Assembly (NCBI GenBank): GCA_902770045.1
Contig: CACXRO010000004.1
Location: 7,323-71,322, forward strand
Source of the DNA: an uncultured bacterium
Lineage (GTDB): Bacteria > Verrucomicrobiota > Kiritimatiellia > RFP12 > UBA1067
DNA: 64,000 bases
Direction: 5' to 3'
The notes beneath the pieces were generated by a model. It saw only the letters and a program-made list of their open reading frames with translations. It was not told the DNA's origin and did not search any database. This document shows positions 3,590-64,000 of this stretch, piece after piece. The stretch's first letter is position 1. Each line of letters begins with the position of its first letter. Position numbers and translations under genes: made by a program.

Positions 3590-3599
3590 TGGCGCAGCC

Positions 3600-4526
3600 T
3601 TGGCAGGCATAGCGTTATTGCTCACCGCGGCGCTCCTCTGGGGCGCCGCGTTTGTTGCCCAGAAAGTCGGGGCGGAGAGCCTCGGCCCGTTCTCGATAAC
3701 CTTCCTGCGCAACCTCGAGGCCGGCGTGTTCCTGGCCGGCTGCTGGTGGGCGCGGCGGCTCATCTCGCCCCGGGCGCGCGCCGCCGCGCCGGCGTGGACG
3801 CGCCGCGCGATCGTCGGCGGGGCGGTCTGCGGCGCGGCGCTTTTCGCCGCTTCGCTCTCGCAGCAGGTCGGCATCATGTACACCACGCCGGGGATCTCCG
3901 CCTTCCTCACCTCCAACTACGTGCTGTTCGTGCCGGTCATCGGCCTCGCCGTCGGCCGCCGCGCCCACCCGCTCGTCTGGGCGGCGGTGGCGGTGGCGCT
4001 CGCCGGCTCCTACCTCATCTGCCTGCCGGACGGCGCGGACGGCTCCATCGGCCGCGGCGAGCTCTGGACGCTCCTCTGCGCCGTTCTCTTCTCCGTGCAG
4101 ATCCTTGTCGTGGACCGCTTCGCGCCCGGCTGCGACGTCCTCGTGTTCTCCTGCATCCAGCAGTTCTCCGGCGCGGCGCTTTCGCTTCCGTTCGTCCTGC
4201 TCCTGGGGTCGGAGAGCTCGTTTTTCTCCGCCGAGGCGCTCGTCCGCTCGGCCCTGCCTGTCCTCTTCATCGCCGTCTTCTCGAGCGGCATCGCCTACAC
4301 CTGCCAGAACCTTGGACAGAAGCGCACCCCGCCCGCGCTCGCCTCGCTCGTCATGGCCACCGAGAGTGTCTTCGGCGCGGTCTTCGGCTGGCTTTGGTTC
4401 GGCGACCGGATGAGCCTGCTCCAGCTGGCCGGCTGCGCGCTCGTATTCGCGGCCGTGGTCGTCGCCTCCGTAGCCCCATTGCCAACGCGCAGCGTTGGAA
4501 GTCCTTCAGCAGCCAACAGACAGTAA
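3600..4526 (+). CDS. EamA/DMT-family transporter (about 10 TM)
   Basis: Two-fold hydrophobic repeat architecture. LLWGAAFVAQKVG and SSGIAYTCQNLGQKR are EamA-like. TTG start. Confidence 0.7.
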   Translation: MAGIALLLTAALLWGAAFVAQKVGAESLGPFSITFLRNLEAGVFLAGCWWARRLISPRARAAAPAWTRRAIVGGAVCGAALFAASLSQQVGIMYTTPGISAFLTSNYVLFVPVIGLAVGRRAHPLVWAAVAVALAGSYLICLPDGADGSIGRGELWTLLCAVLFSVQILVVDRFAPGCDVLVFSCIQQFSGAALSLPFVLLLGSESSFFSAEALVRSALPVLFIAVFSSGIAYTCQNLGQKRTPPALASLVMATESVFGAVFGWLWFGDRMSLLQLAGCALVFAAVVVASVAPLPTRSVGSPSAANRQ

Positions 4527-6902: not shown

Positions 6903-6988
6903 GGTGGGATACTCAAGTGGTCAACGAGGGCAGACTGTAAATCTGCTGGCTAACGCCTTCCAAGGTTCGAATCCTTGCCCCACCACCA
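6903..6988 (+). tRNA. tRNA-Tyr (anticodon GTA), class II with long variable arm, encoded CCA
   Basis: Acceptor GGTGGGA/CCCCACC. Anticodon stem-loop GCAGA-CTGTAAA-TCTGC. Long variable arm tggctaacgcc. T-arm CAAGG-TTCGAAT-CCTTG. Ends in ACCA. Confidence 0.9.
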
Positions 6989-12869: not shown

Positions 12870-15457
12870 ACAGAACCATCGTAATCGGCGCCGCCGCGTT
12901 GGCGGCGCTGGCGTCTGGATGCGAACCCTCCGGCGGCCGCCGCGTCGCCGCGCTTGACGCCGCGGCGTGGAAGGAGAGCGTGTGGATCAGCGTGCCGGAG
13001 GCGAAGACGCTGCCGGACGACTGGTGGCAGAAGAATATCCAGCGCGCGGCGGACGGCACCAGCTGGTTCGTGGGCAGGCTCGAGAACGCAGCCAAGGTGA
13101 AGAAGGCCACCTGGATGACGGCCGGCCTCGGCGTCTACGAGGTCTACGTGAACGGCGTGCGCGTCGGCAGCGACTTCCTCAAGCCCGGCTTCACCCACAA
13201 CGAGAAGACGAAGTATTCCTTCACCTACGACGTCACCGACCTCGTCAAGGCCGGAGCCGGCGACGAAAACTTCTTCGCCGCCGAGGTCTCCGCCGGCTGG
13301 TGGCGCGACAAGATCGTCAACTTCAAGGGCAGGAAGAGCGCCTTCCGCTCGGTCGTCGAGCTCGAGTTCGCGAACGGCGAGAAGCAGCTCTTCGGCACCA
13401 ACCTGAAGGACTGGAAGTGCGGCGTCGCCGGCGCGGTGAAGCACGCGGCGATCTTCGACGGCGAGGAGTACGACGCGCGCGTCGCGCAGCCATACTTCGG
13501 CGCGGACGACTTCGTCGCGCCCGAGGAGAACAAGGAGTTCAAGGGCGAGATATTCCCGACCGCCGGCGCGGAGGTCGTCTTGCGCGGCGACCTGGCGCTC
13601 AAGCCGGTCGAAGCGTACTGCTGGAAGGGCGTCGAGGGCGAGGACAAGGCGAAGCACGTCTTCGGCAAGGTGGTGAAGACCCGCGTCTTCGACCCCGCCG
13701 CGGCGCTCGCGGTCGAGCCCGGCGAGACGCTCGTCGTCGACTTCGGCCAGAACTGCGCGGCGGTTCCGGCTTTTGTGATGAAGTCCGAGCCCGGCGCCAC
13801 GCTCACCTGCCTTCCAGGCGAGATGCTCAATGACATGAACGGCGAGCGCAGCCGCGGCAACGACGGCCCCGGCGGCTCGGTCTACCGCGAGAACCTGCGC
13901 GTTCCGACCCAGGGGATGCGCGCGGTCTACACCTTCGCGACGGCGAAGGACGAGCTCTATGTGCCGCGGTTCACCTTCTTCGGCTACCGCTACGTCTCGA
14001 TCACCGCCGACAAGCCGGTGACGATCAAGTGCCTGCGGTCCGTACCCGTCACCTCGATCACGAAGGAGATGGAGGCCGGCAGCCTCGTGACCGGCGACGA
14101 GTCGCTCAACCGCTTCATCGCCAACGTCTACTGGGGCCAGCTCTCCAACTACCTCTCGGTGCCGACCGACTGCCCGCAGCGCAACGAGCGCCTTGGCTGG
14201 ACCGCCGACACCCAGGTGTTCACCGAGACCGGCGCCTTCAACGCCGACACCTCCGCGTTCTTCCGCAAGTGGATGCGCGACATGCGCGACACCCAGGACG
14301 GCCGCGGCGGCTATCCCGGCGTCGCGCCGCTCGCGCAGTACGGCAGCGCCGACACCATGCGCATGTGCTGGTCCGACGCGGGCATCGTGGTGCCGTTCGA
14401 GATGTTCAAGCAGTTCGGCGACACGGAGATCGTGAAGGAGAACTGGGCGTCGATGGAGAAGTACATGAAGCGCATGGACGAGACGCGCTGCGAACACTCC
14501 AAGCTGATCGGCGAGAACCGCAACTACCAGTGGGCCGACTGGCTCTCGTTCGAGGACCTGGAGTCGTGCAGCGCCCGCATACGCAGTCCTGACGGCTCGA
14601 TCAAGCCGGCGGCGGTCCTCTACTGGAACTTCCTCTACTCCTGCTACTGGGCGCTTGACAGCGACATGATGGCGGCGATGGCGCGCGGCGTCGGCGACGA
14701 AGCCGGCGTCAAGAAGTACGTCGCGATGGGCGAGAAGGCGCGCGCGCAGATCAGGGAGAGGTTCTTCGACAAAGAGACGGGGATGCTCGTCAAGGAGATC
14801 GCGGGCCTCCAGACCGCGAACGTGATGGCGCTCGCGACCGGGGTCGTCAAGGGCGAGCAGCGCGCAGCGGTCGCCGCGCACCTCAGGGAGCTCATCGAGG
14901 GCGAGAGCGAGATCGACGAGGCCGGCTACCGCAAGCGCGTCAAGGGCGTCCTGAAGACTGGCTTCCTCGGCTCGCATTTCGTGATGGACGTTCTCGCGGA
15001 CAACGGCATGGCGGACCTCGCCTATACGCTGCTCCTAAGCCACAAGTTCCCGAGCTGGCTCTATTCCGTCGACCAGGGCGCGACCACGATCTGGGAGCGC
15101 TGGAACGGCTATGTCAAGGAGCGCGGGTTCGGCCCCGTGGGGATGAACAGCTTCAACCACTACGCCTACGGCCAGGTGGTGGCCTGGATCTACCGCCGCG
15201 CCGCCGGCATCGCCGCCGACCCCGCCTCGCCCGGCTTCAGGACGATCGTGATGAAGCCGCTGCCCGACCGCCGCCTCGGATCCGTTAAGGCGTCCTACCG
15301 CTCGGCCGCGGGTCTCGTGACGAGCGCGTGGAGGTACGAGGGCGAGACCTGGATCTGGGAGTTCACCGTCCCCGAGGGCGCGGTCGCGCGCGTCACCCTG
15401 CCGGGCGAGACCGAGTCGAAGGAGTATCCGGCCGGGTCGTACGTCATCAGGCGCTGA
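12866..15457 (+). CDS. Alpha-L-rhamnosidase (GH78) lipoprotein
   Basis: Lipobox AALASGC. CPQRNERLGWTADTQVF and WLYSVDQGATTIWERWNG are typical of bacterial rhamnosidases. Confidence 0.8.
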   Translation: MNRTIVIGAAALAALASGCEPSGGRRVAALDAAAWKESVWISVPEAKTLPDDWWQKNIQRAADGTSWFVGRLENAAKVKKATWMTAGLGVYEVYVNGVRVGSDFLKPGFTHNEKTKYSFTYDVTDLVKAGAGDENFFAAEVSAGWWRDKIVNFKGRKSAFRSVVELEFANGEKQLFGTNLKDWKCGVAGAVKHAAIFDGEEYDARVAQPYFGADDFVAPEENKEFKGEIFPTAGAEVVLRGDLALKPVEAYCWKGVEGEDKAKHVFGKVVKTRVFDPAAALAVEPGETLVVDFGQNCAAVPAFVMKSEPGATLTCLPGEMLNDMNGERSRGNDGPGGSVYRENLRVPTQGMRAVYTFATAKDELYVPRFTFFGYRYVSITADKPVTIKCLRSVPVTSITKEMEAGSLVTGDESLNRFIANVYWGQLSNYLSVPTDCPQRNERLGWTADTQVFTETGAFNADTSAFFRKWMRDMRDTQDGRGGYPGVAPLAQYGSADTMRMCWSDAGIVVPFEMFKQFGDTEIVKENWASMEKYMKRMDETRCEHSKLIGENRNYQWADWLSFEDLESCSARIRSPDGSIKPAAVLYWNFLYSCYWALDSDMMAAMARGVGDEAGVKKYVAMGEKARAQIRERFFDKETGMLVKEIAGLQTANVMALATGVVKGEQRAAVAAHLRELIEGESEIDEAGYRKRVKGVLKTGFLGSHFVMDVLADNGMADLAYTLLLSHKFPSWLYSVDQGATTIWERWNGYVKERGFGPVGMNSFNHYAYGQVVAWIYRRAAGIAADPASPGFRTIVMKPLPDRRLGSVKASYRSAAGLVTSAWRYEGETWIWEFTVPEGAVARVTLPGETESKEYPAGSYVIRR

Positions 15458-22572: not shown

Positions 22573-23432
22573 CAGAACGCCTCCGCCGCGTCGTTGACCC
22601 GCGCCTTGCGCTTCTCGGCGGCGTTTTTCCGTGCCTCGCGGCGGATCTCTTCCGCCTCCTCGGCCGCGGCGCGCAGCATGTTCTCGTCCCAGGCCACTAC
22701 CACCGTCTCGTAGTCGCGCGTCGCTCCCTCGAGCGCGGCGGTCACGTAGCGGTCGGAGCCGAGGTCGAAGGTGTAGACGGGCCGGCACCAGCTGCGCGGA
22801 CGCGCCCAGGTCTGGTAGCGTTTCTCCAGCGCCTCGATAAGGTAGTTGCGCCTCCAGCTCGAGCCGGAGTCCACCGCATTCTTCGCGCAGGCGTAGACCT
22901 TGACCGCGCGGTGCGTGGTGGGCGTCACGTAGACGTAGTAGTCGTTGAACCCGGCGAGAGCCTTCTTCGGCTTGAACGCGGTCCTGAGGAGCGTCGGTTC
23001 GGACGGGTCCTCGGCGAACTCGCCCTCCTTGACCTCGCTGCCGAACTTGACGCCCATGAACGAGTCGCAGTCGGCGGCGTTTTCAGCCTTGTCGACCTGC
23101 TTTGCGCCGTCTATCCGCCGCGAGAGCGAGGCGATCTCGCCGTCGCCGACGGGGTAGCTCTGGGCGTATTCGCTCGTCGAGCTTTCGAGCAGGTTGCCGT
23201 CCGCGTCGAGCGTGGTGCGCGTTTCGCGGCGGTGCTCCGTGACCATGTTTCCGTTGGTCGTCACCGTCGATTCGGTGAAGACGCGCGAGACCGAGCCGTT
23301 TTCGTTGGTGGTTATGCCAGACTCGGTGTTGGACGACGACGCGCTGGCACCCGACTCGGCGTAGAGCGCGGCGGCAAGCGCGATCATGGCGACTCCGCCG
23401 ATCGCGGTAATCTGGGTTATGCTGGTTTTCAT
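22572..23432 (-). CDS. Hypothetical secreted protein
   Basis: MKTSITQITAIGGVAMIALAAALYA signal peptide preceded by AAGGAAAGGAGAAACC. Stop overlaps the cdd start (TGATG). Confidence 0.6.
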   Translation of the reverse strand: MKTSITQITAIGGVAMIALAAALYAESGASASSSNTESGITTNENGSVSRVFTESTVTTNGNMVTEHRRETRTTLDADGNLLESSTSEYAQSYPVGDGEIASLSRRIDGAKQVDKAENAADCDSFMGVKFGSEVKEGEFAEDPSEPTLLRTAFKPKKALAGFNDYYVYVTPTTHRAVKVYACAKNAVDSGSSWRRNYLIEALEKRYQTWARPRSWCRPVYTFDLGSDRYVTAALEGATRDYETVVVAWDENMLRAAAEEAEEIRREARKNAAEKRKARVNDAAEAF

Positions 23433-23595
23433 GTTGGTTTCTCCTTTCCTTGTTTTCCCTCTTTCGAAGGAACGGTGCGTATTGTACCCTGCCGATGTTA
23501 ACGGATTGTCAATGAAACGCAGATTTCCAATTACCATCCAACCATCAATCTGCCGCGCAAAGTACCGCGGAAACCGCCGCGCAGCCAGACCGTGG

Positions 23596-23643
23596 CCTTT
23601 CAACCTTTCAACATTTCAACTTGTTTAACCAACCACCCAACCC
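23596..23643. repeat. Left island-flank repeat: 3 tandem octamers (C/A)TTTCAAC, then an AACCAACCACCCAACC tract
   Basis: Read directly: cctttcaacctttcaacatttcaac. This is the reverse complement of the GTTGAAAG arrays at 29732-29764 and 31737-31775. Confidence 0.8.
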
Positions 23644-23664
23644 TTCTCCACTTTTCAAACCCCA

Positions 23665-23696
23665 TTGACTTTTGCGCCAAAATTTTCGTATAATAC
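23665..23696 (+). promoter_or_regulatory. Strong sigma70-type promoter TTGACT-18 nt-TATAAT
   Basis: TTGACT at 23665-23670 and cgTATAATAC with the hexamer at 23689-23694. No ORF with an RBS follows for about 530 nt. Confidence 0.65.
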
Positions 23697-23699
23697 ATT

Positions 23700-24175
23700 G
23701 CATCGCCGTTGCGAGTAAGTTGTTCGTGGCGGAGATGTGAGGGATAAAGCGCAGTTGGGATATGCGCAAGCCGCATGAGCGGCGTTGATCTTTGACATAG
23801 GCCGGAGACCCAGCATCCGGCTACCGAGCGGCAGAGTGTGCAATCACAAGTCTCTGCCGCGACCATCGTCCCGGTAGGGTCACGCGTCCCGCGTGACCGC
23901 CGAGGGCGGTGCCAGCGAGACCGAAAGGCCGTCGCTGGGACGTACGCAACAGCGTATTGAGCTTCTAGAGAAAACCGCTAATTTTCACTGCATGAAGCGA
24001 GATACGATTGCTGTGCTGCGTTGGTAATCCACGCGGCGCACTTTCTATTCATATTTCATGCAAGGCTCTTAGCGGTGCCTCTCTAGAGATGCGAATCAGG
24101 GAGTGCGCCGCTTCAATTGTATAAGGAGGGCGGCATTCCCGGCACGGATTGGAACGCCGCCCTCGTCCTTTTCCG
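23700..24175 (+). ncRNA. Candidate ~470 nt structured RNA or long regulatory leader (unclassified)
   Basis: Starts at the promoter and ends at a terminator-like hairpin. Complementary pairs read directly are listed here. GCGGCAGAG 23828-36 / CTCTGCCGC 23852-60. CGTCCC 23867-72 / GGGACG 23937-42, enclosing three hairpins (GGTCACGC/GCGTGACC, CCGCC/GGCGG, CCAGCGA/TCGCTGG). TCTAGAG+CCGCTAA 23964-81 / TTAGCGG+CTCTAGA 24069-88. TGCATGAA 23989-96 / TTCATGCA 24055-62. Pseudoknot GCGGCGCACT 24033-42 / AGTGCGCCGC 24102-11. Confidence 0.5.
24126..24175 (+). terminator. Intrinsic-terminator-like or attenuator hairpin
   Basis: GAGGGCGGC (24126-34) ... GCCGCCCTC (24156-64), followed by gtccTTTTcc. It lies between the structured RNA and the RBS (AAGGAGG) of the first island gene. 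Confidence 0.45.
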
Positions 24176-24226
24176 TGGAACACAAGGTGGGCTACAAGGG
24201 GAACCCTTTAAGGAGGTAGAAAAATT

Positions 24227-25804
24227 ATGAAGTGCGAAAATTGCGGTGCAGAGATCACCGACAAGATGAAGTTCTGCAGTGAATGCGGTACGCGTGTCCC
24301 AACTGATAAGGAGTGTCCGGCATGCCACACCCGGTGCGCTCTCGCGGCAAAGTTCTGCTCTGAATGCGGACATGATTTTTCAAAACTGGAGGAAATTGAA
24401 GAAGACACAGGCGACGATGACAATGACAGCGAAGAGGACACTTCTTCTAGTGGACACTACTCAGTCATACTGAAAGATTGTGGCGAGGACAAGGGCGCGG
24501 TGCTCAGGGATCTCGTTGCCATGACGGGTAAACGTCTTTGGCCGGACATCTCCGATATGGTAGATAATTTGCCTGCTGTCGTTGCCAAAGGTCTTACCCG
24601 AGACAAGGCAGATCTATATTATGGCGGATTGCTTCTTGATGGGGCTCAGGCCGAGATTGTCGCAGATGAAGATGGAGACGGCGATTCAGACGACGATGAT
24701 TCTTCTCCGGGCGAGCCATACCCGGAGATGGTGGATATCCCCGGACGTAACTTCAAGTTGGGCTGTACTCCGGTCACGCAGGCGCAGTGGGAAGCAGTGA
24801 TGGGGTATAACCCTTCTTATTTCACTTATAAAGGCGCGAACCGTCCAGTGGAGCAGGTCAGCTGGGACGATTGTCAGGAGTTCATCGAAAAGCTGAACGA
24901 GCAGACGGGGATGTGCTTCCGGTTGCCGACACAGAAGGAGTGGGAGTATGCCTGCCGCGCTGGCAGCAAGGGTGACTACGGTCTTGTGGAAGGTGGAGAG
25001 GAAGGCGACATCGACGACATGGGCTGGTATGACGGCAACAGTGACGACGAGACGCATCCCGTCGCGCAGAAACAGCCCAATGCATGGGGGCTCTACGACA
25101 TGCACGGCAACGTGTCGACATGGTGCGCAGACGCGTCCGGCCCGTCGAGCCACGTGGTTTGCGGCGGCGGATTCAACTTTGACGCCGGCAGCTGCACGGC
25201 TACGTATCGGAACGGATGCGAGTCAGATTGTAGCGATAACTGGATTGGTCTTCGCCTTGCGATGGATTGCGACTCAGACACGGACGATGACGAGTCCGAA
25301 GAAGAGGATTCGTCATCGGCCGGGAGCAGTCACAAAAGTCGTACCTGTTCGGTTTTCCTAAAGGATATCGGTAACGACAAAAACGCTGTGATCAGGGAAG
25401 TGCGTAGACTTTTCAACAAGACATTCGGAGAGGCGAAGAATCTGGTGGAAACGAACATTTCACCCATACCTCTTCATCTGGACTGTCTCCGCGAAAAGGC
25501 CGAAGAGATTGCCGCGGCGCTGGAGGCGGTGGGTGCCACCGTTGAGATCTCCGACAAGGACGTAGGGACTGTAACAAGCGGGAACTGCTCGGTCGTTATC
25601 AAGAAGCTCCCATTCATGATGGGGCGTGGAGACAGGATGGGGGTCGCTTGTATAATTGCCGAGGCTGAGGGATGTATGCCAGCCAACGCATGGAAGATGC
25701 TAGACAACCTCCCCTTGACTTTTGCAAAGAACATCTCCCGCGAAGAGGCGGAGGAAATCGCTTCTAAAATTGAGGCGAGAAAGTGCAAGGTCGAAATTGT
25801 CTGA
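24227..25804 (+). CDS. Double zinc-ribbon protein with three ribosomal L7/L12 C-terminal-like domains flanking an FGE/SUMF1 (C-type-lectin-fold) domain
   Basis: N-terminus CENCG..CSECG..CPAC..CSECG. Three segments align to the L12 CTD: SVILKDCGEDKGAVLRDLVAMTG..DMVDNLPAVVAKG..GAQAEIV; SVFLKDIGNDKNAVIREVRRLF..AKNLVE..AEEIAAALEAVGATVEIS; SVVIKK..NLPLTFAKNISREEAEEIASKIEARKCKVEIV. FGE motifs: RPVEQVSWDDCQEF, RLPTQKEWEYACRAG, GWYDGNSDDETHPVAQKQPNAWGLYDMHGNVSTW, IGLRLA. Confidence 0.8.
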   Translation: MKCENCGAEITDKMKFCSECGTRVPTDKECPACHTRCALAAKFCSECGHDFSKLEEIEEDTGDDDNDSEEDTSSSGHYSVILKDCGEDKGAVLRDLVAMTGKRLWPDISDMVDNLPAVVAKGLTRDKADLYYGGLLLDGAQAEIVADEDGDGDSDDDDSSPGEPYPEMVDIPGRNFKLGCTPVTQAQWEAVMGYNPSYFTYKGANRPVEQVSWDDCQEFIEKLNEQTGMCFRLPTQKEWEYACRAGSKGDYGLVEGGEEGDIDDMGWYDGNSDDETHPVAQKQPNAWGLYDMHGNVSTWCADASGPSSHVVCGGGFNFDAGSCTATYRNGCESDCSDNWIGLRLAMDCDSDTDDDESEEEDSSSAGSSHKSRTCSVFLKDIGNDKNAVIREVRRLFNKTFGEAKNLVETNISPIPLHLDCLREKAEEIAAALEAVGATVEISDKDVGTVTSGNCSVVIKKLPFMMGRGDRMGVACIIAEAEGCMPANAWKMLDNLPLTFAKNISREEAEEIASKIEARKCKVEIV

Positions 25805-25810
25805 TGTGTT

Positions 25811-25836
25811 GCCAACTCCGCCCGGCGGGTGCTGGA
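25811..25836 (+). promoter_or_regulatory. Conserved post-stop hairpin motif, copy 1 (CCAACTCCG-CCCGGC-GGGT-GCTGGA)
   Basis: One of three near-identical motifs that each follow a stop codon in the island. Stem CCGGC/GCTGG with one G-T pair. Confidence 0.55.
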
Positions 25837-25870
25837 TGCGGAGGAGGTGACGTGAAAGAAGGGAAAGATT

Positions 25871-26390: not shown

Positions 26391-26431
26391 GGTCCACTGA
26401 TAGTGGTTACCGTGCTGATACGGGCATTTTT

Positions 26432-26457
26432 ACCAACTTCGCCCGGCGGGTGCCGGA
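26432..26457 (+). promoter_or_regulatory. Conserved post-stop hairpin motif, copy 2 (CCAACTTCG-CCCGGC-GGGT-GCCGGA)
   Basis: Stem CCGGC/GCCGG with loop GGGT. Confidence 0.55.
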
Positions 26458-26505
26458 AGCAGGGATGGTGAAAACAAAAAGTAAACACCACAAAGGAAAC
26501 AAAGC

Positions 26506-27175: not shown

Positions 27176-27181
27176 TGCTTT

Positions 27182-27207
27182 TCCAACTCCGTTCGGCGAA
27201 TGCCGAA
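27182..27207 (+). promoter_or_regulatory. Conserved post-stop hairpin motif, copy 3 (CCAACTCCG-TTCGGC-GAAT-GCCGAA)
   Basis: Perfect 6 bp stem TTCGGC/GCCGAA. The C->T / G->A changes relative to copies 1-2 are compensatory. Confidence 0.55.
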
Positions 27208-27254
27208 TAAGGAGACTAATCTTACAACGACAATAAAAAAAGAAAGAGGTTGGT

Positions 27255-29234
27255 ATGAGCAAGACGAAAACATGCCCTAAATGTGGTGGAAGCGGTATGC
27301 TTGACCATTGTGGACGATGCAATGGGTCTGGCAAGGTGACGTGTAGCACGTGCGGCGGATCAGGAGAAATAAAAGATAGCTGCAGAGCCTGCAATGGGAC
27401 TGGTAAGATTACGAAAACAAGGCTGAAAAATTGCTCTCAGTGTCATGGGGCGGGACAAATATATTTAGACACATATTTAGACCATCGTTGGATCAGCTGT
27501 GGGAAATGCGGTGGAAGCGGACAGGTGGAGGATGAGTACGATGAAGTCTGCCCAAATTGTAATGGAACTGGAGATTTTGGCTCGGGACGAGGATGCTCGG
27601 ACTGCAATGGAACTGGCGAAGTAATCTGTCCAAGCTGTGGTGGCAATGCGCATAAACCGTCCACCTGTGATAGATGTGACGGTTCAGGAGAAGTTGAAGT
27701 ATATACATCTTCCTCATCCTCTTCGTCTGAAGAAGGGAAATGGTGGGAATATGTCCTTGGGCTTCTTATATTGATTGCGCTTTGCTGGGGTGGATGGCGC
27801 GGTTACAAATGGCTATTTGGGGAGCGCGGCGGTAGCGAAGTCATCACGGAAGCCGAGATTATGGAGAAGTGGCAGGAGCATCTCGAAAAGAGGCGTGATG
27901 CTTTTGATGATGGCTTGCCCGAAAAGGAGATCGAAGCAAAGGGGCTAAAAAACTACACTTGGGACGAGTGGCAGGAGAAGTTCAAGAAGGAGCATGAAGC
28001 ACCGGCGAAGCAAGAGGGTTCTGACAAAACAAGGGCGCAGGAAATTGGCGAGCAGGCACTTTCCACGGCAAAAGATCTTGGCGACAAGGCGAAAGGGTTG
28101 TGGCAAAGTATCACAGCCAAGGAAGAGAAGGATCCAGAAGCCGAACTGAAAAGACTCAATGCGCGTCTTGCGGAGTTGGAGGGTCGCAGCAATAGTGGTG
28201 AGACGACTGATGTGGAGAACATCGGAGAAAAATATAGAGAGCATCAACGGAAGCGAAGCGAATTGCTTATGAGCGGGCTTACTGATAGGCAACTTGACGC
28301 GATGGGGTATGCTGACTATACTTACAATGGGTTTAAAAAGAACTACAAGAATATAAAATACAAGACACTGGAAGAGATTCGGCAGGACAGTGAGTCTTCT
28401 GCAAGGCCTGTTGTGGTTCCAGAGAAGACAGCGGAGCCAAAAGATGCAACGTCGAGCACAACGGCTGAGGCGGTAGCGAGGGCGAAGGTGGCTGCCGAGG
28501 ACAAGTCCAAGGCGGAGGCAGAGGCGAGGGCCAAGGCCGAGGCAGAGGCAAAACGACTTGCTGAGAAGTTGGCGCGCAAGGAAGCCGAAGAGAAGGCACG
28601 GGCCGAAGAGCAGGCAAGGGCGAAGAAAAAGGCAGAAGCCAAGGCTAAGGCTGAGGCAGAGGCGAGGGCTAGAGCAGAAGCCGAGGCAAAACGACTTGCT
28701 GAAGAATTGGCGCGCAAGGAAGCCGAAGAGAAGGCGCGGGCCAGAGAGGAAGCACGTGCAAAAATCCAGGCGGAAGATAGGGCTAAAGCTGAAGCTGAGG
28801 CGAAAGCTCGTGCCACGGCGGAGGCTATCGCAAAGGCGGAAGTAAATGCGGATGCCTCTGTCGAACCTGAAGGTTCTGCAGTTGGACAGCAAGACGGTGA
28901 TATGCATAAAGCATCAAAGGATTCGAAAGGTATACGTATCGTAGTCCAGGGAAAGGGCAAGACGAAGGATGCTGCGGTGCGCTGGGCAATTCGTGATGCG
29001 GTGTGGAAAACCGTCGGCAAATGGGTGGATTCAAAGGCTCGGATTCAGGAGAATCATGACAAGGTTGTTGCCCAGGTGAAGACAATCACCGAAGCCGACG
29101 TTGCCAAGTTTGAGGTGATGGACACTCAGATGCAGGACGGCGGTTTTGTCGTCAAGGTGAGAGTCTCTGTCTCGAAGAAGAAGATCGCGCCGAAGTTTGC
29201 GGAAATCTTCCCTGATGTGTTTGGCAATGAATAA
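27255..29234 (+). CDS. Protein with ten DnaJ-type CxxCxGxG zinc-finger motifs, one TM helix, a long Ala/Glu/Lys coiled coil and a C-terminal alpha/beta domain
   Basis: [78 protein letters not shown]. Poly-Ser, then [21 protein letters not shown]. TolA-like [18 protein letters not shown] repeats. The C-terminus [29 protein letters not shown].. is tentatively LPP20-like. Confidence 0.75.
28512..28787 (+). repeat. Tandem ~138 nt duplication inside the coiled-coil coding region
   Basis: [38 protein letters not shown].. is repeated as [38 protein letters not shown]... The copies start at 28512 and 28650. Confidence 0.85.
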
Positions 29235-31575: not shown

Positions 31576-31736
31576 TGAGCAGCAGCTCCAGGGGTTCGCG
31601 CGCATTTGCGTCAACCCGTAGTTCTTCCTGTCGAAAAAGTACAATAGGCAAAAAGGGACAGACCCACCTATATATGTTTTACTGTATATGCTTGACGGCG
31701 GGGAGGCGATGTAAAAGTTCCGCGGCAGATAAACAG

Positions 31737-31775
31737 GTTGAAAAGTTGGGCTATTCCGGTTGAAAAGTTGAAAGG
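31737..31775. repeat. Right island-flank repeat: GGTTGAAAAGTTG ... GGTTGAAAAGTTGAAAGG
   Basis: Inverted relative to 23596-23620. G+C rises again immediately to the right. Confidence 0.75.
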
Positions 31776-31904
31776 CTACCGGCAGGATCAGGCCGGAACT
31801 GCACTCCTCTGGCTGTGCGCCGCGGCTCTACCCGCGCTCCATCCGCAACGACGAGAATTCCGCCGCGTACCTGGTGACGCTGGAGCGCTGAGACTGGGCC
31901 TGCG

Positions 31905-58530: not shown

Positions 58531-59339
58531 CCGCTGCGGTCCTGCTGGCCGCCGCCGCGCTGGTGGCCGCCTCGGCCGCCGGCCCGGCCGGGCGCGGCGC
58601 GCCGACGTTTACGGACGAGTTCGACGGCGCCGGGCTCGACGCGCAAGTCTGGAGCGACTGGGAGGCGTCTTTCCAGGGCCGCCGCGCAGGGTTTCTTTTC
58701 GCCCGGGACAATGTCGCGGTCTCCAACGGATGCCTCAACCTGACCGCGCGGCTGCTGCGCACGGACGAGAAGACGGTGGAGAATCTCCGCCGCGGCTTCG
58801 ACACCTACGCCACCGCCTATGTTCGCCGCCGCGAAAAGAGCTTCTACGGCTACTACGAGTGCCGCGCTCGGACGATGGACTCGAAGGTGTGCAACGCCTT
58901 CTGGCTCTACGACCCGCTCTCCGACCAGCCCGAACGCAAGTTCCGCGTCGGCGACGTCTCGGAGGAGATCGACATGTTCGAGATCTTCGGCTCGTTGCGC
59001 GAATGGTACGGTACGGTCCACTGCCTTAAGACGCCGTATCTCGAGGGAATCGTCCACGGCGGGGTGGAGAAACTGCCGGAGAAGTCGAAGAAGGTGGCGC
59101 TCGATTTCAATCCCGCCGCGGAGTTCCACGTCTATGGCTTCCTCTGGTCCCGCGACCGCCTCGCCTGGTACATCGACGGCAAGGAGGTCTTTTCGCGCGC
59201 GAACGACCGCTTCCACCGTCCGCTCCACGTCACCTTCGACTGCGAGATCATGTACACCTGGGTCGGCGAGCCCGACCGCACCCGCCTCCCGCAGGTCTAC
59301 TCCATCGACTACTTCCGCCACTGGTCCAGTCCGGAATGA
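58527..59339 (+). CDS. Secreted GH16-family glycoside hydrolase
   Basis: Ala-rich signal peptide. Catalytic-type motif SEEIDMFE (ExDxxE). ATGA overlap with proS. Confidence 0.7.
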   Translation: MTAAVLLAAAALVAASAAGPAGRGAPTFTDEFDGAGLDAQVWSDWEASFQGRRAGFLFARDNVAVSNGCLNLTARLLRTDEKTVENLRRGFDTYATAYVRRREKSFYGYYECRARTMDSKVCNAFWLYDPLSDQPERKFRVGDVSEEIDMFEIFGSLREWYGTVHCLKTPYLEGIVHGGVEKLPEKSKKVALDFNPAAEFHVYGFLWSRDRLAWYIDGKEVFSRANDRFHRPLHVTFDCEIMYTWVGEPDRTRLPQVYSIDYFRHWSSPE

Positions 59340-59446
59340 TGGCATAGTCTCTGCTAGTGCAGTGGGCATGCCTAATCCAAACAGCCTGTCGCTAAGGATC
59401 GAACAGCATATTGTCCGGTCACGATTTGAACATAGTATTCAGAATA

Positions 59447-59457
59447 TGATAAAATAC
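59447..59457 (+). promoter_or_regulatory. Extended -10 promoter TGATAAAATAC
   Basis: About 35 nt upstream of ATG 59494, which has a GGGAGG SD. Confidence 0.4.
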
Positions 59458-59493
59458 GCGTCAGCCAATCGAACGAGAAAGGGAGGTGGCGCG

Positions 59494-61002
59494 ATGGAGC
59501 GGAATTCAAACCTGATTCTGACGGGCTGGGGCTACGCGGAATACGTGGCCTCGGCAGCGGTCGCATTGAAGGCACTTGGCGGCAGAGCGGACGTGTACGG
59601 CGTGAGCCGCAGGCGTTTGCCGGAGTTCCTTGGGGAACTTGCGGGAGAGCGCGGAACGCCGCAATGGAAGCACATCTACTTGCTTGGCCTCTCGTTGAGC
59701 GGCGATCCTGAATCGCTCAAGGCAGCTCTTGCAAAGCTGAAGGCAAAGGGCGTGGAGGTGACGTGGATAAGTGCGCTTGAAATGCCCGAACATATCGCCG
59801 CCCTGCTTGACGGCGTCGTGAAGGTGCGCTGCTATGACGGGAGCCTTCTCGAAGCGGTCGGGCAGACGTTTGGAGTGGACGTCGAGGTGTTCATGCCGTT
59901 CCTCAAAGATCGAAAGAGAGTGTCGGCAGATGTTCGCGCCTACTTCACGCTGATCGACACGGCGCAGTTCTATTACCGAAACTACCAGGACGAATCGCTC
60001 TATGCCACGACCGCCCGCTATCTTGCCGGCGGCGTTCGCCCTGCGGCGTGGGAGCCGGATGTCAGGAGTGCTGTCGAACATTACGAACGCTACGGTAGCA
60101 GAGAGCTGCTGGGGAAAAGCGACGAGATCACGACATTGCAGGATCGCATCAACCGGGTGGCGGCGCATGAACACGCCCGTGTCCTCATCCTCGGCGAAAG
60201 CGGCACCGGCAAGGAGACCGTCGCCCAGCAGATTCATACTAAAAGCCCGAGAAGCAAGATGCCGTTCATCGCCTTCAACTGCGCGAGCGTGACGAAAGAC
60301 CTGCTGGAGGATCGCTTCTTCGGCCACGAGCGCGGGGCGTTCACGAACGCCGTGGAGCGGACGGACGGTTTGTTTCTCCAGGCGGACGGCGGCACGCTCT
60401 TCCTTGATGAGATTGGAGAGATGCCGCTGGAGGTTCAGGCGCTACTCCTGCGCGTTCTCGAAGGCGGACGGTTCATGCGCGTGGGCGGCAGGGAGGAGTT
60501 GAAGTGCGACGTTCGACTCATCACGGCCACAAACCGCGACTTGCCGCGCCTCGTGGTTGAGGGCAAGTTCCGCGAAGACCTATACCAGCGCCTCAACGTG
60601 GTGCAGATGAGAACGCCGTCCCTGCGCGAACACAAGGATGACATACCGATCATCGCCAACGCATGGTGGCGCAAGTTCCACGACAACGCCGTTCTCAAAG
60701 AAGAGCAGATTGCCGCGCTGATGGACTACGACTATCCCGGCAATGTCCGCGAACTTATCAACATCCTTGACAGGGCGACCGCCCTGGAGGAGTATGATTT
60801 TGACGCCCTGATGCACGAACACAGGGAGATGAATGCGGGTCTTTCGGGTGGACTGGAATTGAAGTCTGGTCGCGTTCCCGACAAACTCGAAGACGCGATT
60901 CGCCTCCATATCCGCCGCGTGTACGAGAAGTACGGTCAGAATCTCACCCGTGCCGCCGAAGCGCTCGACGTTAGTCGGAATACCGTGCGGAAATATTTGT
61001 AG
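59494..61002 (+). CDS. Sigma54-interacting AAA+ transcriptional activator with an unassigned ~180 aa N-terminal domain and a Fis-type HTH
   Basis: VLILGESGTGKETVAQ (Walker A), GAFTNA (GAFTGA variant), LFLDEIGEM (Walker B), RFMRVGG, LYQRLNV. C-terminus NLTRAAEALDVSRNTVRKYL. Confidence 0.85.
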   Translation: MERNSNLILTGWGYAEYVASAAVALKALGGRADVYGVSRRRLPEFLGELAGERGTPQWKHIYLLGLSLSGDPESLKAALAKLKAKGVEVTWISALEMPEHIAALLDGVVKVRCYDGSLLEAVGQTFGVDVEVFMPFLKDRKRVSADVRAYFTLIDTAQFYYRNYQDESLYATTARYLAGGVRPAAWEPDVRSAVEHYERYGSRELLGKSDEITTLQDRINRVAAHEHARVLILGESGTGKETVAQQIHTKSPRSKMPFIAFNCASVTKDLLEDRFFGHERGAFTNAVERTDGLFLQADGGTLFLDEIGEMPLEVQALLLRVLEGGRFMRVGGREELKCDVRLITATNRDLPRLVVEGKFREDLYQRLNVVQMRTPSLREHKDDIPIIANAWWRKFHDNAVLKEEQIAALMDYDYPGNVRELINILDRATALEEYDFDALMHEHREMNAGLSGGLELKSGRVPDKLEDAIRLHIRRVYEKYGQNLTRAAEALDVSRNTVRKYL

Positions 61003-61016
61003 GGTGGGGTTTGTTT

Positions 61017-61045
61017 CCCGCAGAGACGCAGAGTCGCTGAGAGGA
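61017..61045. repeat. GCAGAGAC-family repeat, ending in the SD of the next gene
   Basis: cccgcagagacgcagagtcgctgagagga. The ATG at 61054 follows 8 nt later. Confidence 0.85.
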
Positions 61046-61053
61046 GTTTCTAA

Positions 61054-61995
61054 ATGGAAAAGAATGAGATAGTGTTGTTTGAGTCCGAAGATGGCGCGGT
61101 ATCGTTGCCGGTATCGGTCGAGGCTGATACCGTATGGCTGACCCGTATGCAGATGGCGAATCTATTTGGCGTCACGCCGCAGAATATCACAATCCACCTC
61201 AAAAAGGTGTATGCGGCTGGCGAATTGGAAAGATCGTCAACTAGTAAAGATTTTTTACTAGTTCAAGAAGAAGGAGGACGTCAGATAGCCCGTTCTGTGA
61301 ATTGTTACAATCTTGACGCAATCATTTCGGTCGGTTATCGTGTCAATTCCTCGCGCGCTACGCAATTTCGCATCTGGGCCACTAAAGTCTTGAAAGAGTA
61401 TATGTTGCGTGGCTATGCAGTCAACCGTGAGCGTATCCGCCAGCTCGGCCAGACGGTTGAGGTGATGAAGCGGGTTGTCAACAACCTTGACACCGAGCAG
61501 GTGCTTGACGTCGTCCAGACCTACTCGGCGGCGCTTGATCTGTTGGACGGCTACGACCACCAGACGATTGAGAAACCGAAGGCAAAGGGGCGCGCGGTCG
61601 AGTTATCCTACGAGGAGTGCCGCCGCTTCATTGACAGCATGAAGTTCGCGGCGGATTCGCCGCTGTTCGGCAACGAGAAGGACGGTTCGTTCAAGTCCGC
61701 GCTCGGGGCGGTTTACCAGTCTTTTGGCGGAAAGGACCTCTATCCGTCTTCGCAGGAGAAGGCGGCGAACCTGCTGTATCTCGTCACGAAGAACCACGGC
61801 TTCTCTGACGGCAACAAGCGAATTGCCGCCGGGCTGTTCCTGTATTTTCTGAAGCGCAACCGGCTGCTTCTTCGCAAGGACGGCTCGAAGCGCATCGCCG
61901 ACCATACGCTCGTTGCGCTTACGGTGATGATTGCAGAATCCAAGCCGCAGGAGAAAGAGCTGATGGTCAATCTCGTGATGACGTTTCTGAAGTGA
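61054..61995 (+). CDS. RhuM-family N-terminal domain fused to a Fic/Doc domain
   Basis: The RhuM-like N-terminus is VWLTRMQMANLFGVTPQNITIHLKKVY..SVGYRVNSSRATQFRIWATKVLKEY. The Doc-type motif is KNHGFSDGNKRIAAGLF. Confidence 0.8.
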   Translation: MEKNEIVLFESEDGAVSLPVSVEADTVWLTRMQMANLFGVTPQNITIHLKKVYAAGELERSSTSKDFLLVQEEGGRQIARSVNCYNLDAIISVGYRVNSSRATQFRIWATKVLKEYMLRGYAVNRERIRQLGQTVEVMKRVVNNLDTEQVLDVVQTYSAALDLLDGYDHQTIEKPKAKGRAVELSYEECRRFIDSMKFAADSPLFGNEKDGSFKSALGAVYQSFGGKDLYPSSQEKAANLLYLVTKNHGFSDGNKRIAAGLFLYFLKRNRLLLRKDGSKRIADHTLVALTVMIAESKPQEKELMVNLVMTFLK

Positions 61996-62004
61996 GTTTA
62001 TATC

Positions 62005-62036
62005 TCCCGCAGAGACGCAGAGGCGCAGAGAGGAGG
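62005..62036. repeat. GCAGAGAC-family repeat (left arm flanking the GxxExxY gene), supplies the SD
   Basis: tcccgcagagacgcagaggcgcagagaggagg, followed by tagatATG at 62042. Confidence 0.9.
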
Positions 62037-62041
62037 TAGAT

Positions 62042-62581
62042 ATGATAGAAGATGACGTGAGACAGATAACTGGCGACGTAATTGATTCGGCGATGAAGAT
62101 TCATAAGATGTTTGGACCAGGAATGTTGGAGTCGGTTTACGAACGGATGCTGGCGATAGAACTTAAGAGACGGGGGCATGGTGTGGAATGTCAGAAATCA
62201 ATCGGCTTTATGTATGAGGGCGAGGCGTTTGAAGATGCATTTCGTCTTGATTTGCTTGTGGACGGGGAAGTTGTTGTCGAGTTGAAATCTACCAGCACGA
62301 TGAATCCTGTTTTTGCCAAGCAACTTCGGACATATCTTGTTCTCTCCGGCTTGGAAATAGGCTTGGTTATTAATTTTGGTATGGCATTGATGAAAGACGG
62401 TATAGTGCGGGTAATCAACAGCCACAATCTAAACTGTTCTCAGAATCCACTCTGCGCCTCTGCGTCTCTGCGGGGAAGAGAAAAAGGGTTTCCCACAGAG
62501 GCACAGAGACACAGAGAAAAGGGCGGAACAACACTCTGCGCCTCTGCGTCTCTGCGGGAAACAAAAAAGGAACAACCATGA
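62042..62581 (+). CDS. GxxExxY-family PD-(D/E)XK-like protein with a ~50 aa repeat-encoded C-terminal extension
   Basis: [17 protein letters not shown] (GxxExxY), [13 protein letters not shown] (D..ExK), GLVINFG. Family-typical length ends near 62430. The ORF then reads through three repeats (..[23 protein letters not shown]..) to a stop overlapping the macro ATG. Confidence 0.8.
62448..62559. repeat. Three GCAGAGAC-family units: inverted (62448-62475), forward variant (62491-62523), inverted (62532-62559)
   Basis: cactctgcgcctctgcgtctctgcggg occurs twice identically. The reverse complement of its core equals 62006-62030 (25 nt). Confidence 0.9.
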
Positions 62582-63192
62582 TCAAGATTATCCAGGGCGA
62601 TATAACGACACTTGCGGTGGATGCCATCGTCAACGCGGCGAACCAGGTGATGCTTGGTGGAGGCGGTGTTGATGGCGCGATTCACCGCGCCGCCGGGCCG
62701 GAGCTTTACGAGGCGTGCCTCAAGGTTCCGGAGGTGCGGCCGGGCGTACGCTGCCCGACGGGCGAGGCGCGCATCACGACGGGCTTCAAGTTGCCTGCAA
62801 AGTTTGTAATCCACACAGTCGGCCCGGTCTATCGCGAGATAACCGCCCCTTGCGGGGGTTCGCGACCCATGGGGAAGCGAACACGCCGAGCGGAGCGAGT
62901 GCCGAGACTTCATGGCGAGCCCGAAAAACTTGCGGCCTGCTACCGCAACTCGCTTGCTCTCGCGATGGAGAACGGCTGCAAGTCCATCGCATTCCCCTGT
63001 ATCTCGACAGGTATCTACGGCTATCCGAAGGAAGATGCCGCGGAGATTGCGGTGCGGGAGGTGGAGGAATTTCTAGCCGCATCCACCTCCGCGCCTTGCG
63101 CTACGGTGGACGAGAAGAACGCAGAGATGGACGTGATCTTCTGCTGCTTCTCGACGCACGATGTGGCGGTGTATGAACGATTGCTGAAATGA
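62578..63192 (+). CDS. Macro-domain protein (YmdB/MacroD-like ADP-ribose-processing hydrolase)
   Basis: [54 protein letters not shown]. Confidence 0.88.
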
Positions 63193-63224
63193 TATATGGA
63201 ATTGAACAGGAAAGGATTTTTGCA

Positions 63225-63833
63225 ATGAAGGCAAACTATGTGATGATAGATTTCGAGAATGTCACCCCTGATAATCTCGACGCGTTGAAGCAGACGGACT
63301 TCAAAGTTATGCTTTTTGTCGGCGAAGGCCAAAAGAGCATCCCGAAACAAATTGCAATGGCGATGCAGCGCATCGGAGCAAAAGGGGAATATGTCGAGAT
63401 TGGAGGGACTGGGCACAATGCGCTTGACTTCCACATTGCCTATTACGTTGGTTGCATTTCAGTAGAGGACAAGGACGCATATTTTCACATTGTCTCAAAA
63501 GACAAAGGTTTCGATCCGCTTGTAAAGCATTTGCATGGTCGTGGCATTTTCATTGATCGTGTTGAGTCAATAGAGGCAATTCCGGCCTTGATGCAGGCCA
63601 AGTCTTCTAAAATGTCTCTCAGAGATCAGGTTGCACAGACGAAAGAGCGATTGTCAAAGCCTGGCGTAACGCTGCCTCGGTCGCGCAAGACGCTGTCCAA
63701 TCATGTCAATGCCATGTTTGGCAAGTTGTTGCCAGAGGAGCGTGTCGTGGCAATTGTTGATGCATTATTTGTAGAAGGGTTTGCATTTGAGAATGGCAAA
63801 CGTGTTGAATTCAAATGTGAGCGCAAAGCGTAA
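63225..63833 (+). CDS. PIN/NYN-like domain protein (tentative)
   Basis: VMIDFENV..MLFVGEGQ..HNALDFHIAYY..HIVSKDKGFD resembles the acidic-residue pattern of NYN/LabA-type PIN folds. AGGAAAGGA upstream. Confidence 0.4.
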   Translation: MKANYVMIDFENVTPDNLDALKQTDFKVMLFVGEGQKSIPKQIAMAMQRIGAKGEYVEIGGTGHNALDFHIAYYVGCISVEDKDAYFHIVSKDKGFDPLVKHLHGRGIFIDRVESIEAIPALMQAKSSKMSLRDQVAQTKERLSKPGVTLPRSRKTLSNHVNAMFGKLLPEERVVAIVDALFVEGFAFENGKRVEFKCERKA

Positions 63834-64000
63834 ATGACTACCTTTCTTTCCAACCGCGACATCTACACCTCCGTCGTCTGCGGGATTGTGCCGCAGGTGA
63901 GGGAACGACTGTGGATTGCAACCGCTGATATCAAGGACATGTATGTTGATTCAGGTGGGCGGGACATGGTGCCGTTCTTGGAGGTTTTAGACGGAATGGT
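63834..64000 (+). CDS. PLD-like domain protein, N-terminal fragment (runs off the window)
   Basis: The ATG directly follows the previous stop (TAAATG). MTTFLSNRDIYTSVVCGIVPQVRERLWIATADIKDMYVD.. resembles N-termini of phospholipase-D-family nucleases. Confidence 0.35.
   Translation, partial: MTTFLSNRDIYTSVVCGIVPQVRERLWIATADIKDMYVDSGGRDMVPFLEVLDGM

Follow-up and report, generated by a model that had tools for sequence, protein, structure and literature searches.

A conserved structured RNA ahead of accessory genes in uncultured bacteria: a candidate family of large 5' leader RNAs

Few large bacterial RNAs have complex covarying folds, and with each new class new biochemistry has tended to come to light. 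Among regulatory leaders, GEMM riboswitches can be numerous within one genome, placed ahead of diverse genes of which many serve surface or adhesion functions, and among the large structured RNAs, ROOL and GOLLD are often prophage-borne. Here we report on an RNA encoded on contig CACXRO010000004.1 of an uncultured bacterium (Verrucomicrobiota, Kiritimatiellia, RFP12, UBA1067; assembly GCA_902770045.1), within a stretch of 64,000 nucleotides (positions 7,323 to 71,322 of the forward strand) which we call the window and to which our coordinates refer. This RNA, lying between a sigma-70-type promoter and the first gene of a low-G+C island, has homologues at 41 other loci and keeps its long-range and crossing helices by compensatory changes. 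We propose, at what we judge to be an even chance, that it belongs to an uncatalogued family of large 5' leader RNAs (~350-650 nt, ~530 nt here) regulating in cis the accessory gene or operon downstream.

Several described systems resemble it in part. Like the c-di-GMP-I (GEMM, RF01051) riboswitches, it has a 5' leader position and a covarying conserved core followed by a platform, predicted here, of competing pairings with a Shine-Dalgarno (SD) sequence and a U-rich tract; however, it has no sequence or structure match to them, its core has roughly double the size of theirs and follows a variable domain of 60-350 nt, and the genes behind it (hereafter the cargo) include restriction-modification and other defence genes. 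With ROOL (RF03087), GOLLD (RF01998), OLE (RF01071) and raiA (RF03072) it shares a size of several hundred nucleotides, many covarying helices, long invariant unpaired stretches and an occurrence mainly in uncultured organisms, but it matches none of their covariance models, is strictly coupled to a start codon and carries a tract predicted to pair with the SD region; unlike ROOL and GOLLD, it was not found in phage and viral collections. The HK022 put and Bacillus EAR elements are also promoter-proximal RNAs placed before long accessory operons, although they are much smaller and simpler. Pneumococcal BOX, Neisseria Correia and REP/BIME repeats are, as this RNA probably is too, multi-copy, intergenic and co-transcribed with their neighbours, with variable numbers of hairpin sub-modules, yet the present RNA differs by its invariant core, its long-range covarying helices and its fixed orientation and spacing to the gene. 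Finally, ToxI/ToxN and retron msr-msd place a structured RNA behind a promoter and ahead of a gene for defence or for an effector, and part of the cargo here is anti-phage; in contrast to these systems, the RNA lacks tandem short repeats, a conserved partner protein and an adjacent reverse transcriptase, and the cargo is unrelated between copies.

The RNA, its homologues and its covariation

The RNA lies in an intergenic region of 785 nt, between a minus-strand gene starting at 23441 and the first island gene, which starts at 24227 behind the SD sequence UAAGGAGGU. An initial annotation of the window, made by reading the sequence, had singled out its promoter as the best of the sigma-70 type, and indeed TTGACT-18-TATAAT at 23665 is the sole match of at least 11/12 to TTGACA-N16-18-TATAAT on either strand of the 64 kb. 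The same annotation saw no credible open reading frame (ORF) for ~530 nt after it, which is borne out by ORFs of 30-44 aa only in 23695-24226. The RNA 23700-24226 folds with -242 kcal/mol, compared with -191 +/- 6 kcal/mol for dinucleotide shuffles (z -8.5), the z score of the opposite strand being -5.5.

Homologues were obtained by three routes. When the 80 best loci encoding relatives of the first island protein, taken from species-representative genomes, were checked for the RNA, only one (L003, a Kiritimatiellia metagenome-assembled genome) carried it; the homologue (nhmmer E 2e-9) lies between a TTGACT-17-TATGAT promoter and an operon. The window and L003 already show as a pair compensatory changes in the long-range helices and in the 10-bp pairing described below. 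A single scan of metagenome contigs with an exact pattern built from two conserved blocks, which misses more distant relatives, returned 39 contigs, all of them true homologues; judging by their accession series, these contigs probably come from the ruminant gut. An ENA contig (L129), found by looking up the first island protein, encodes an identical protein behind a diverged leader and brings the total to 41 homologues. Many metagenome contigs start or stop inside the RNA, which suggests several copies per genome, and the RNA is thus probably multi-copy within genomes; the window itself carries one copy. Covariance-model scores are 109-193 bits on the plus strand and 33-55 bits on the opposite one, and the window is a divergent member (113 bits). 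Together with frequent G-U pairs, these scores establish that the plus strand is the functional one.

The leader consists of a variable 5' domain followed by an almost invariant core of ~200 nt. In a MAFFT alignment of 34 cores (~160 nt), the 47 base pairs of the core, arranged in 8 helices, are kept at 98.2%, whereas the same pairs with their 3' partners slid by 1-3 columns are paired at 33-52%. Two-sided changes occur at 20 pairs (172 cells, which count sequences and not independent events), and none of 500 shuffles reaches any of the five measures used. The covariance-model alignment of 35 sequences gives a similar picture, with 98.5% paired and 21 pairs (194 cells) showing double changes, the cells scored numbering 1590-1637 in these alignments. 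The crossing helices (PK, for pseudoknot, and Pg) and the long-range helices Pc, Pd and Pe are each more than 98% paired and each show compensatory changes, so that crossing helices are independently supported. The helices are separated by long unpaired blocks that do not vary, AAGCGAGAUACGA among them, and in total ~100 unpaired nucleotides are extremely conserved. The initial annotation had thus correctly recognized a highly structured RNA with two long-range helices and a perfect 10-bp pairing crossing them, all kept by compensatory changes in the homologues, and its 9-bp hairpin is perfect in the window sequence. By contrast, the helix CGTCCC/GGGACG that it placed at the closure of a junction has two mismatches in L129, the closest relative, and is absent from the family.

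The conserved element also starts earlier than the helices noted in that annotation, with a single-stranded block (GAUCUUUGACAU) and including the promoter module. The family order is promoter, short hairpin, GAUCUUUGACAU, P1, helices P2 and P3, GGNRGGG and GC-hairpin modules, Pa and Pb; the 5' domain spans ~60-350 nt and the number of modules varies. In a consensus fold of six sequences including the window, 16 of the 44 predicted 5'-domain pairs show compensatory changes. Of the 21 loci with 120 nt or more of upstream sequence, 15 have a TTGNNN-N16-18-TANNNT promoter 56-122 nt before the conserved block, and near-match promoters are seen in other loci. Pairing of GAUCUUUGACAU with the core was considered and rejected, as candidate partners vary while the block stays constant, and a resemblance of the GGUAGGG modules to the RfaH ops element (GGCGGTAG) was also set aside, the match being weak and the modules reading GGNRGGG across copies. 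Two observations concern these parts outside their usual place. In L126, two GGTAGGG and hairpin modules identical to those of the leader are present in inverted orientation after the third cargo gene (~2970-3060 nt past the ACGUACGC anchor in Pb), hence modules also exist outside the leader, like REP elements; in L121, a second copy of the family promoter (AAAACCGCGATTCCCGCTTGC...GGGAATGGGGTATA) follows the first cargo gene (~1660-1700 nt past the anchor) and a second core RNA was not detected there, so the promoter part can occur alone.

The initial annotation could not match the RNA to RNase P, tmRNA, SRP, 6S, a retron msr/msd or a complete cobalamin riboswitch, and the Rfam/Infernal scan proposed there gave no match to a known family. 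Against the 4227 models of Rfam 15, used at the gathering threshold and at permissive E-values, the window gave only a tRNA (6903-6985) at the gathering threshold, the region 23300-24400 at E up to 10 gave only noise (at most 21 bits, for thresholds of 45-73), eight typical family members gave no matches, and the L126 leader at E up to 1 gave one miRNA noise match of 19.8 bits. No description of the RNA was found in full-text literature searches, which were few in number. It is a new family of a general kind, structured leaders with competing pairings, which is already known. Other identities were also rejected. Blastn of phage and plasmid collections gave no match; in viral contigs a single-block pattern gave chance matches in coding DNA and two specific patterns gave none. 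The template RNA of a diversity-generating retroelement had been considered on account of the lectin-fold FGE domain of the first gene and was rejected: no repeat of 23443-24226 was found in the FGE gene or elsewhere in the window, nor any reverse transcriptase among the island proteins. A retron msr-msd lacks an adjacent reverse transcriptase here (RVT_1 in 1 of 58 cargo proteins), and a type III antitoxin RNA does not agree with a leader devoid of tandem repeats. As for a conserved small ORF, which the initial annotation had named as a possible refutation, short ATG-initiated frames are not retained between copies, the most conserved segment shows a length polymorphism of 1 nt (GAAGGUU/GAAGUU) and loop lengths differ by non-multiples of 3.

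Competing pairings and the ribosome-binding site

The 10-bp pairing had been described as a pseudoknot. The helix is real and covaries; however, part of its 5' strand, 24035-39 (GGCGU in the family), has a second and equally conserved partner, since it can pair either upstream with 24013-17, extending hairpin Pf, or downstream with the other PK strand (GGCACGCCAC in most copies), and PK may be the arm of a switch rather than a static element. The Pf extension is compatible with 35 of 35 sequences, and each one-sided change in it preserves the pair; two such changes (L093 and L098) preserve the extension and yet break the matching pair of PK. Conversely, the part of PK outside the overlap (24040-42/24102-04) has compensatory changes of its own. 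As the extension is kept and the distal part of PK is compensated, two mutually exclusive helices both look selected, and this alternative conserved partner suggests a switch. The helices fall into two fully nested sets, Pc, Pd, Pe and extended Pf (state 1) or Pf, PK, Pg and Ph (state 2).

Downstream of the core, most copies show the 3' strand of PK followed directly by the tract UCUUCUUUUCU, then a hairpin with a covarying closing stem, a purine-rich SD stretch and the start codon. When 31 leaders were folded individually, the tract was predicted to pair with the SD region with a mean probability of 0.70, and the SD window to be unpaired with a mean probability of 0.27. In the window this place is taken by the hairpin 24126-24165, whose 5' arm copies the SD (UAAGGAGGG, 24122-30) and whose 3' arm and tail form a pyrimidine tract (CCCUCGUCCUUUUCC, 24160-74); the tail is predicted to pair with AAGGGGA just before the SD, leaving the GGAGG core of the SD with an unpaired probability of 0.1-0.55. 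This is also the hairpin that the initial annotation read as terminator-like (24126-24175). The hairpin and the GUCCUUUUCC (UCCUUUU) that follows it are there, but a terminator scan calls neither the window nor the family form, and the family tract pairs in the predictions with the SD region. In the family, UCUUCUUUUCU directly follows GGCACGCCAC, but the partner of the latter lies ~60 nt upstream; the tract could also be the U-run of a terminator with PK as its stem.

Genomic setting, island and cargo

At every locus with enough sequence, a co-oriented ORF starts downstream of the RNA, mostly 190-290 nt past the ACGUACGC anchor (start codons of the metagenome loci being called by simple rules). 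The cargo itself is unrelated from copy to copy. Among 58 cargo proteins, BspA-type leucine-rich repeats (LRR_5) and FGE-sulfatase/lectin folds are present in 7 each and an RVT_1 reverse transcriptase in 1; others carry Listeria-Bacteroides repeats, BACON domains, FRG or DUF2971, are zinc-ribbon membrane proteins, or belong to type I and type IIG restriction-modification, Mrr and several AAA ATPases, part of this cargo being anti-phage. A strict link with FGE-sulfatase genes was rejected, L003 being the only one of the 80 FGE loci above with the RNA, and FGE is one cargo type among many. Upstream flanks are ordinary chromosomal genes (LptF/G, ComEC, MnmG, glycosyltransferases) with some toxin-antitoxin genes, and the median G+C is 0.60 upstream and 0.53 downstream of the leader. 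Several large cargo proteins (L093, L126) share the C-terminal motif ...GAATLDGEWK.V......FFKVVVEV(Q/P), which may be an undescribed sorting signal.

In the window, where the host-genome G+C is ~68-70%, the island (~23.4-32 kb) has 41-54% G+C and is entirely enclosed, leader RNA included, by imperfect TTTCAAC-rich inverted repeats (Table 1). On its outer side each arm is bordered by ACCG, possibly a short target duplication. A AAACTTCAACTTCC motif related to these arms is located upstream of the -35 box in several homologues, and the TTTCAAC repeats and AAACTTCAACTTCC motifs could be transposon ends or regulator binding sites. Inverted repeats were looked for around other copies of the leader and none were found. 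In L003, a ~95-120-nt tandem repeat containing the hairpin CCGTGGTGGAAGATAACCACGG forms two arrays in direct orientation (3590-3980 and ~12959-13255), one on each side of the leader with its four-gene operon.

The first island protein has an unusual architecture, with an acidic linker between its double zinc ribbon and its FGE-sulfatase domain. Elsewhere in the island, one gene product is a DnaJ-type CXXCXGXG zinc-finger protein that has long coiled-coil repeats, and another is an AAA ATPase that has a zinc ribbon and gives weak IetA-like PADLOC matches. A 42-nt element (TTGCCAACTCCGCCCGGCGGGTGC...) occurs three times within the island (25809-25850, 26430-26471 and 27180-27221), each copy forming a small GC hairpin immediately upstream of the ribosome-binding site of the next gene; these elements may be sites of processing, termination or translation control. 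A 659-aa gene contains a 138-nt tandem duplication (28463-28738, 79% identity) encoding Ala/Glu/Lys-rich coiled-coil repeats. A second stretch of lower G+C (0.49-0.60) is located at the right end of the window (59000-64000), with no second copy of the RNA.

Table 1. Positions of the leader RNA elements and of associated features in the window
Feature	Position	Strand	Basis or remark
Left inverted-repeat arm, imperfect, tandem TTTCAAC motifs	23585-23622	.	Left edge of the low-G+C island
Sigma-70-type promoter TTGACT-18-TATAAT	23665-23694	+	Sequence scan
Promoter-proximal hairpins	23700-23785 (23700-23738 and 23770-23783)	+	Folding; short hairpin before the conserved block in homologues examined
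Conserved single-stranded block GAUCUUUGACAU	23787-23798	+	5' boundary of the family-wide conserved RNA
Variable 5' domain	23799-23938	+	Six-sequence consensus fold
P1 hairpin	23799-23822	+	5' domain
9-bp hairpin	23828-23860 (23828-36/23852-60)	+	5' domain
GGUAGGG and GC-hairpin module	23873-23899	+	5' domain; one in the window
Pa hairpin, GAAA loop	23912-23938	+	5' domain
Pb hairpin ACGUACGC-AACA-GCGUAU	23940-23957	+	Almost invariant; search anchor
Core with nested long-range helices	23964-24087	+	Covariation
Pc	23964-70/24081-87	+	Covaries at all 7 positions, 3-5 pair types each
Pd	23975-81/24069-75	+	Nearly invariant; compensated in the window, L129 and L003
Pe	23989-96/24055-62	+	Covaries at 3 positions
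Invariant strand AAGCGAGAUACGA	23995-24007	+	Alignment
Pf hairpin (24018-24034) with 5-bp extension (24013-17/24035-39)	24013-24039	+	Extension competes with PK for 24035-39
Crossing helix PK, perfect 10 bp	24033-42/24102-11	+	Three pairs with double changes, several pairing-preserving one-sided changes
Ph local helix	24064-67/24076-79	+	Alignment
GC-rich hairpin and tract	24122-24174	+	Position of the family's predicted SD-pairing tract and hairpin
SD UAAGGAGGU (24209-17) and start codon (24227) of the first island gene	24209-24229	+	Sequence
First cargo gene: double zinc ribbon, FGE-sulfatase (C-type-lectin-like), two ribosomal L7/L12 C-terminal domains	24227-25804	+	
Right inverted-repeat arm (GTTGAAAAGTTGAAAGG...)	31730-31786	.	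Right edge of the low-G+C island

Possible roles of the RNA

In the explanation that we favour, the leader would be transcribed from its own predicted sigma-70-type promoter and would act in cis on the accessory gene or operon starting at a fixed distance downstream. Its default fold would shut the ribosome-binding site, and possibly also transcription through the U-rich tract, and a signal (a protein, a second messenger or another RNA) would shift the balance between the two pairings and release expression. The promoter-leader module would travel with interchangeable cargo, so as to place costly or dangerous accessory genes under one common control. The initial annotation had left the choice between a stand-alone noncoding RNA and a leader; the ORF at fixed distance, the predicted pairing of the tract with the ribosome-binding site and the two conserved exclusive pairings favour the leader. 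Of the features expected of a riboswitch, a conserved structured domain in a 5' leader was found and a shared function downstream was not; a classical metabolite riboswitch is unlikely, since the downstream genes share no function, and the unrelated cargo fits a general control module for accessory genes. A more ambitious form of the proposal, tentative and in our opinion possible rather than probable, is a "cassette platform", that is, a bistable pseudoknotted sensor of ~200 nt with interchangeable cargo (anti-phage or adhesin-like), all copies of which would answer to one common signal, for example a cue from infection or from the envelope, a second messenger or a dedicated RNA-binding protein.

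Several points weigh against a switching leader. Promoter, RNA ends and read-through are deduced from the sequence, and L096, L104 and L108 have no recognisable promoter and directly follow the upstream gene. The core is closely related in most homologues, and the covariation of the crossing helix PK comes mainly from three divergent sequences (the window, L129 and L003). A pyrimidine tract pairs by composition with any purine-rich SD, the tract-SD pairing has little covariation support, and RNAalifold on the 3' platform, a region that aligns poorly and for that reason was folded sequence by sequence, found nothing. In nested folding, state 1 is the minimum in nearly all sequences (mean -69 kcal/mol, compared with -49 kcal/mol for state 2), which makes the state with the long-range helices ~20 kcal/mol more stable than the one with the crossing helices. 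Hence, either state 2 would be attained only with the help of a factor, or every helix but the Pf extension would form at the same time, and what looks like a switch could be a static double pseudoknot; on these predicted folds, two states and simultaneous crossing helices are equally possible. Finally, the size of the RNA and its variable 5' domain are atypical for cis-regulators.

The size and ornateness of the RNA, with its long-range and crossing helices, would suit a stand-alone structured RNA of the ROOL/GOLLD/OLE kind, acting in trans as an RNA-only or RNA-protein particle and ending at the helix and U-rich tract, with the downstream genes as mere neighbours or expressed by read-through. 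Such an RNA would have its own promoter, as predicted here, and the GC-rich helix followed directly by UCUUCUUUUCU in most copies, the ~100 extremely conserved unpaired nucleotides, beyond the need of most cis-regulators, and the many contigs breaking inside a sequence suggestive of several copies per genome can all be read in its favour. However, the RNA is in every case followed, at a constant spacing, by the start codon of a gene in the same orientation, which leaves no space for another promoter; the tract and the SD region of that gene are complementary, some copies are without a promoter of their own and no known large-RNA family matches, and we therefore consider this role unlikely.

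Less likely again is a leader for processive antitermination or against Rho, comparable to put, EAR or the leaders of NusG paralogues, in which the RNA or a factor recruited by it would modify the polymerase for the transcription of long foreign operons of low G+C. The RNA is indeed promoter-adjacent and precedes long, horizontally acquired operons of lower G+C, with surface-protein genes of 1100-1750 codons, and one and the same module serves unrelated cargo. Nevertheless, known antitermination RNAs have 70-120 nt and two stem-loops, several times less than here, many cargo genes are short, and the predicted SD-pairing tract and the competing helices would be left unexplained.

We think it improbable that the RNA belongs to a mobile cassette system, as its RNA component or its conserved end, and is required (as RNA or as DNA) for moving or exchanging the cargo in the manner of guide or bridge RNAs, retroelement RNAs or integron-like platforms. 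The low-G+C island of the window, RNA included, is bounded by imperfect inverted repeats, chromosomal flanks upstream are opposed to accessory cargo downstream, and unrelated genes are attached to the same leader through a junction that does not vary. Furthermore, L129 and the window carry the same gene (525-aa protein) behind patchwise different leader alleles: they are identical from 24064 through the gene, and upstream (L129 1-402 aligned with window 23825-24226) they differ in patches, one hairpin module being replaced and Pe altered on both strands. This suggests recombination or gene conversion among copies, unless contigs were falsely joined across the repeat, as metagenome assembly in general may do. 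In another contig, L117, the 5' half resembles the L105 type and the 3' half the L093 type, either by real recombination or as an assembly chimera. Against a mobile system, no recombinase, transposase or nuclease is consistently adjacent, the single reverse transcriptase and the lack of inverted repeats around other copies have been mentioned above, the RNA was not found in viral, phage and plasmid collections, and its hypervariable segments pair with each other, unlike free guides. An integration hot spot behind an RNA gene, of the tRNA or tmRNA type, was likewise rejected, as the RNA lies inside the island and the inverted repeats, the junction with the ORF is constant and integrases were not seen.

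A functionless modular repeat, either selfish or neutral and comparable to BOX, ERIC or Correia, could account for a probable multi-copy state, for the varying number of GGNRGGG and hairpin modules and for the inverted modules of L126, but we regard it as excluded but for a very slight chance, because long invariant unpaired blocks stand beside helices that vary and yet stay paired (Pc and Pe with 3-5 pair types per position, which copying alone, as of BOX or miniature inverted-repeat transposable elements, would not give) and because the RNA keeps a strict orientation and spacing relative to the start codon behind it, all of which argues for selection on the RNA.

Anti-phage systems and large surface proteins are usually under tight control in bacteria. 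With its clear leader position, states that can be tested through competing helices and a tract predicted to pair with the ribosome-binding site, and dozens of natural variants, this RNA offers useful properties for study, and finding its signal could reveal how poorly known uncultured bacteria regulate a variable gene pool. The family would be an addition to RNA catalogues, so that such regions would no longer be annotated as empty intergenic DNA. Should all copies prove to be sensors with interchangeable cargo under a common signal, they would represent both a hitherto undescribed class of large regulatory RNA and a novel principle by which variable gene cassettes are organised.

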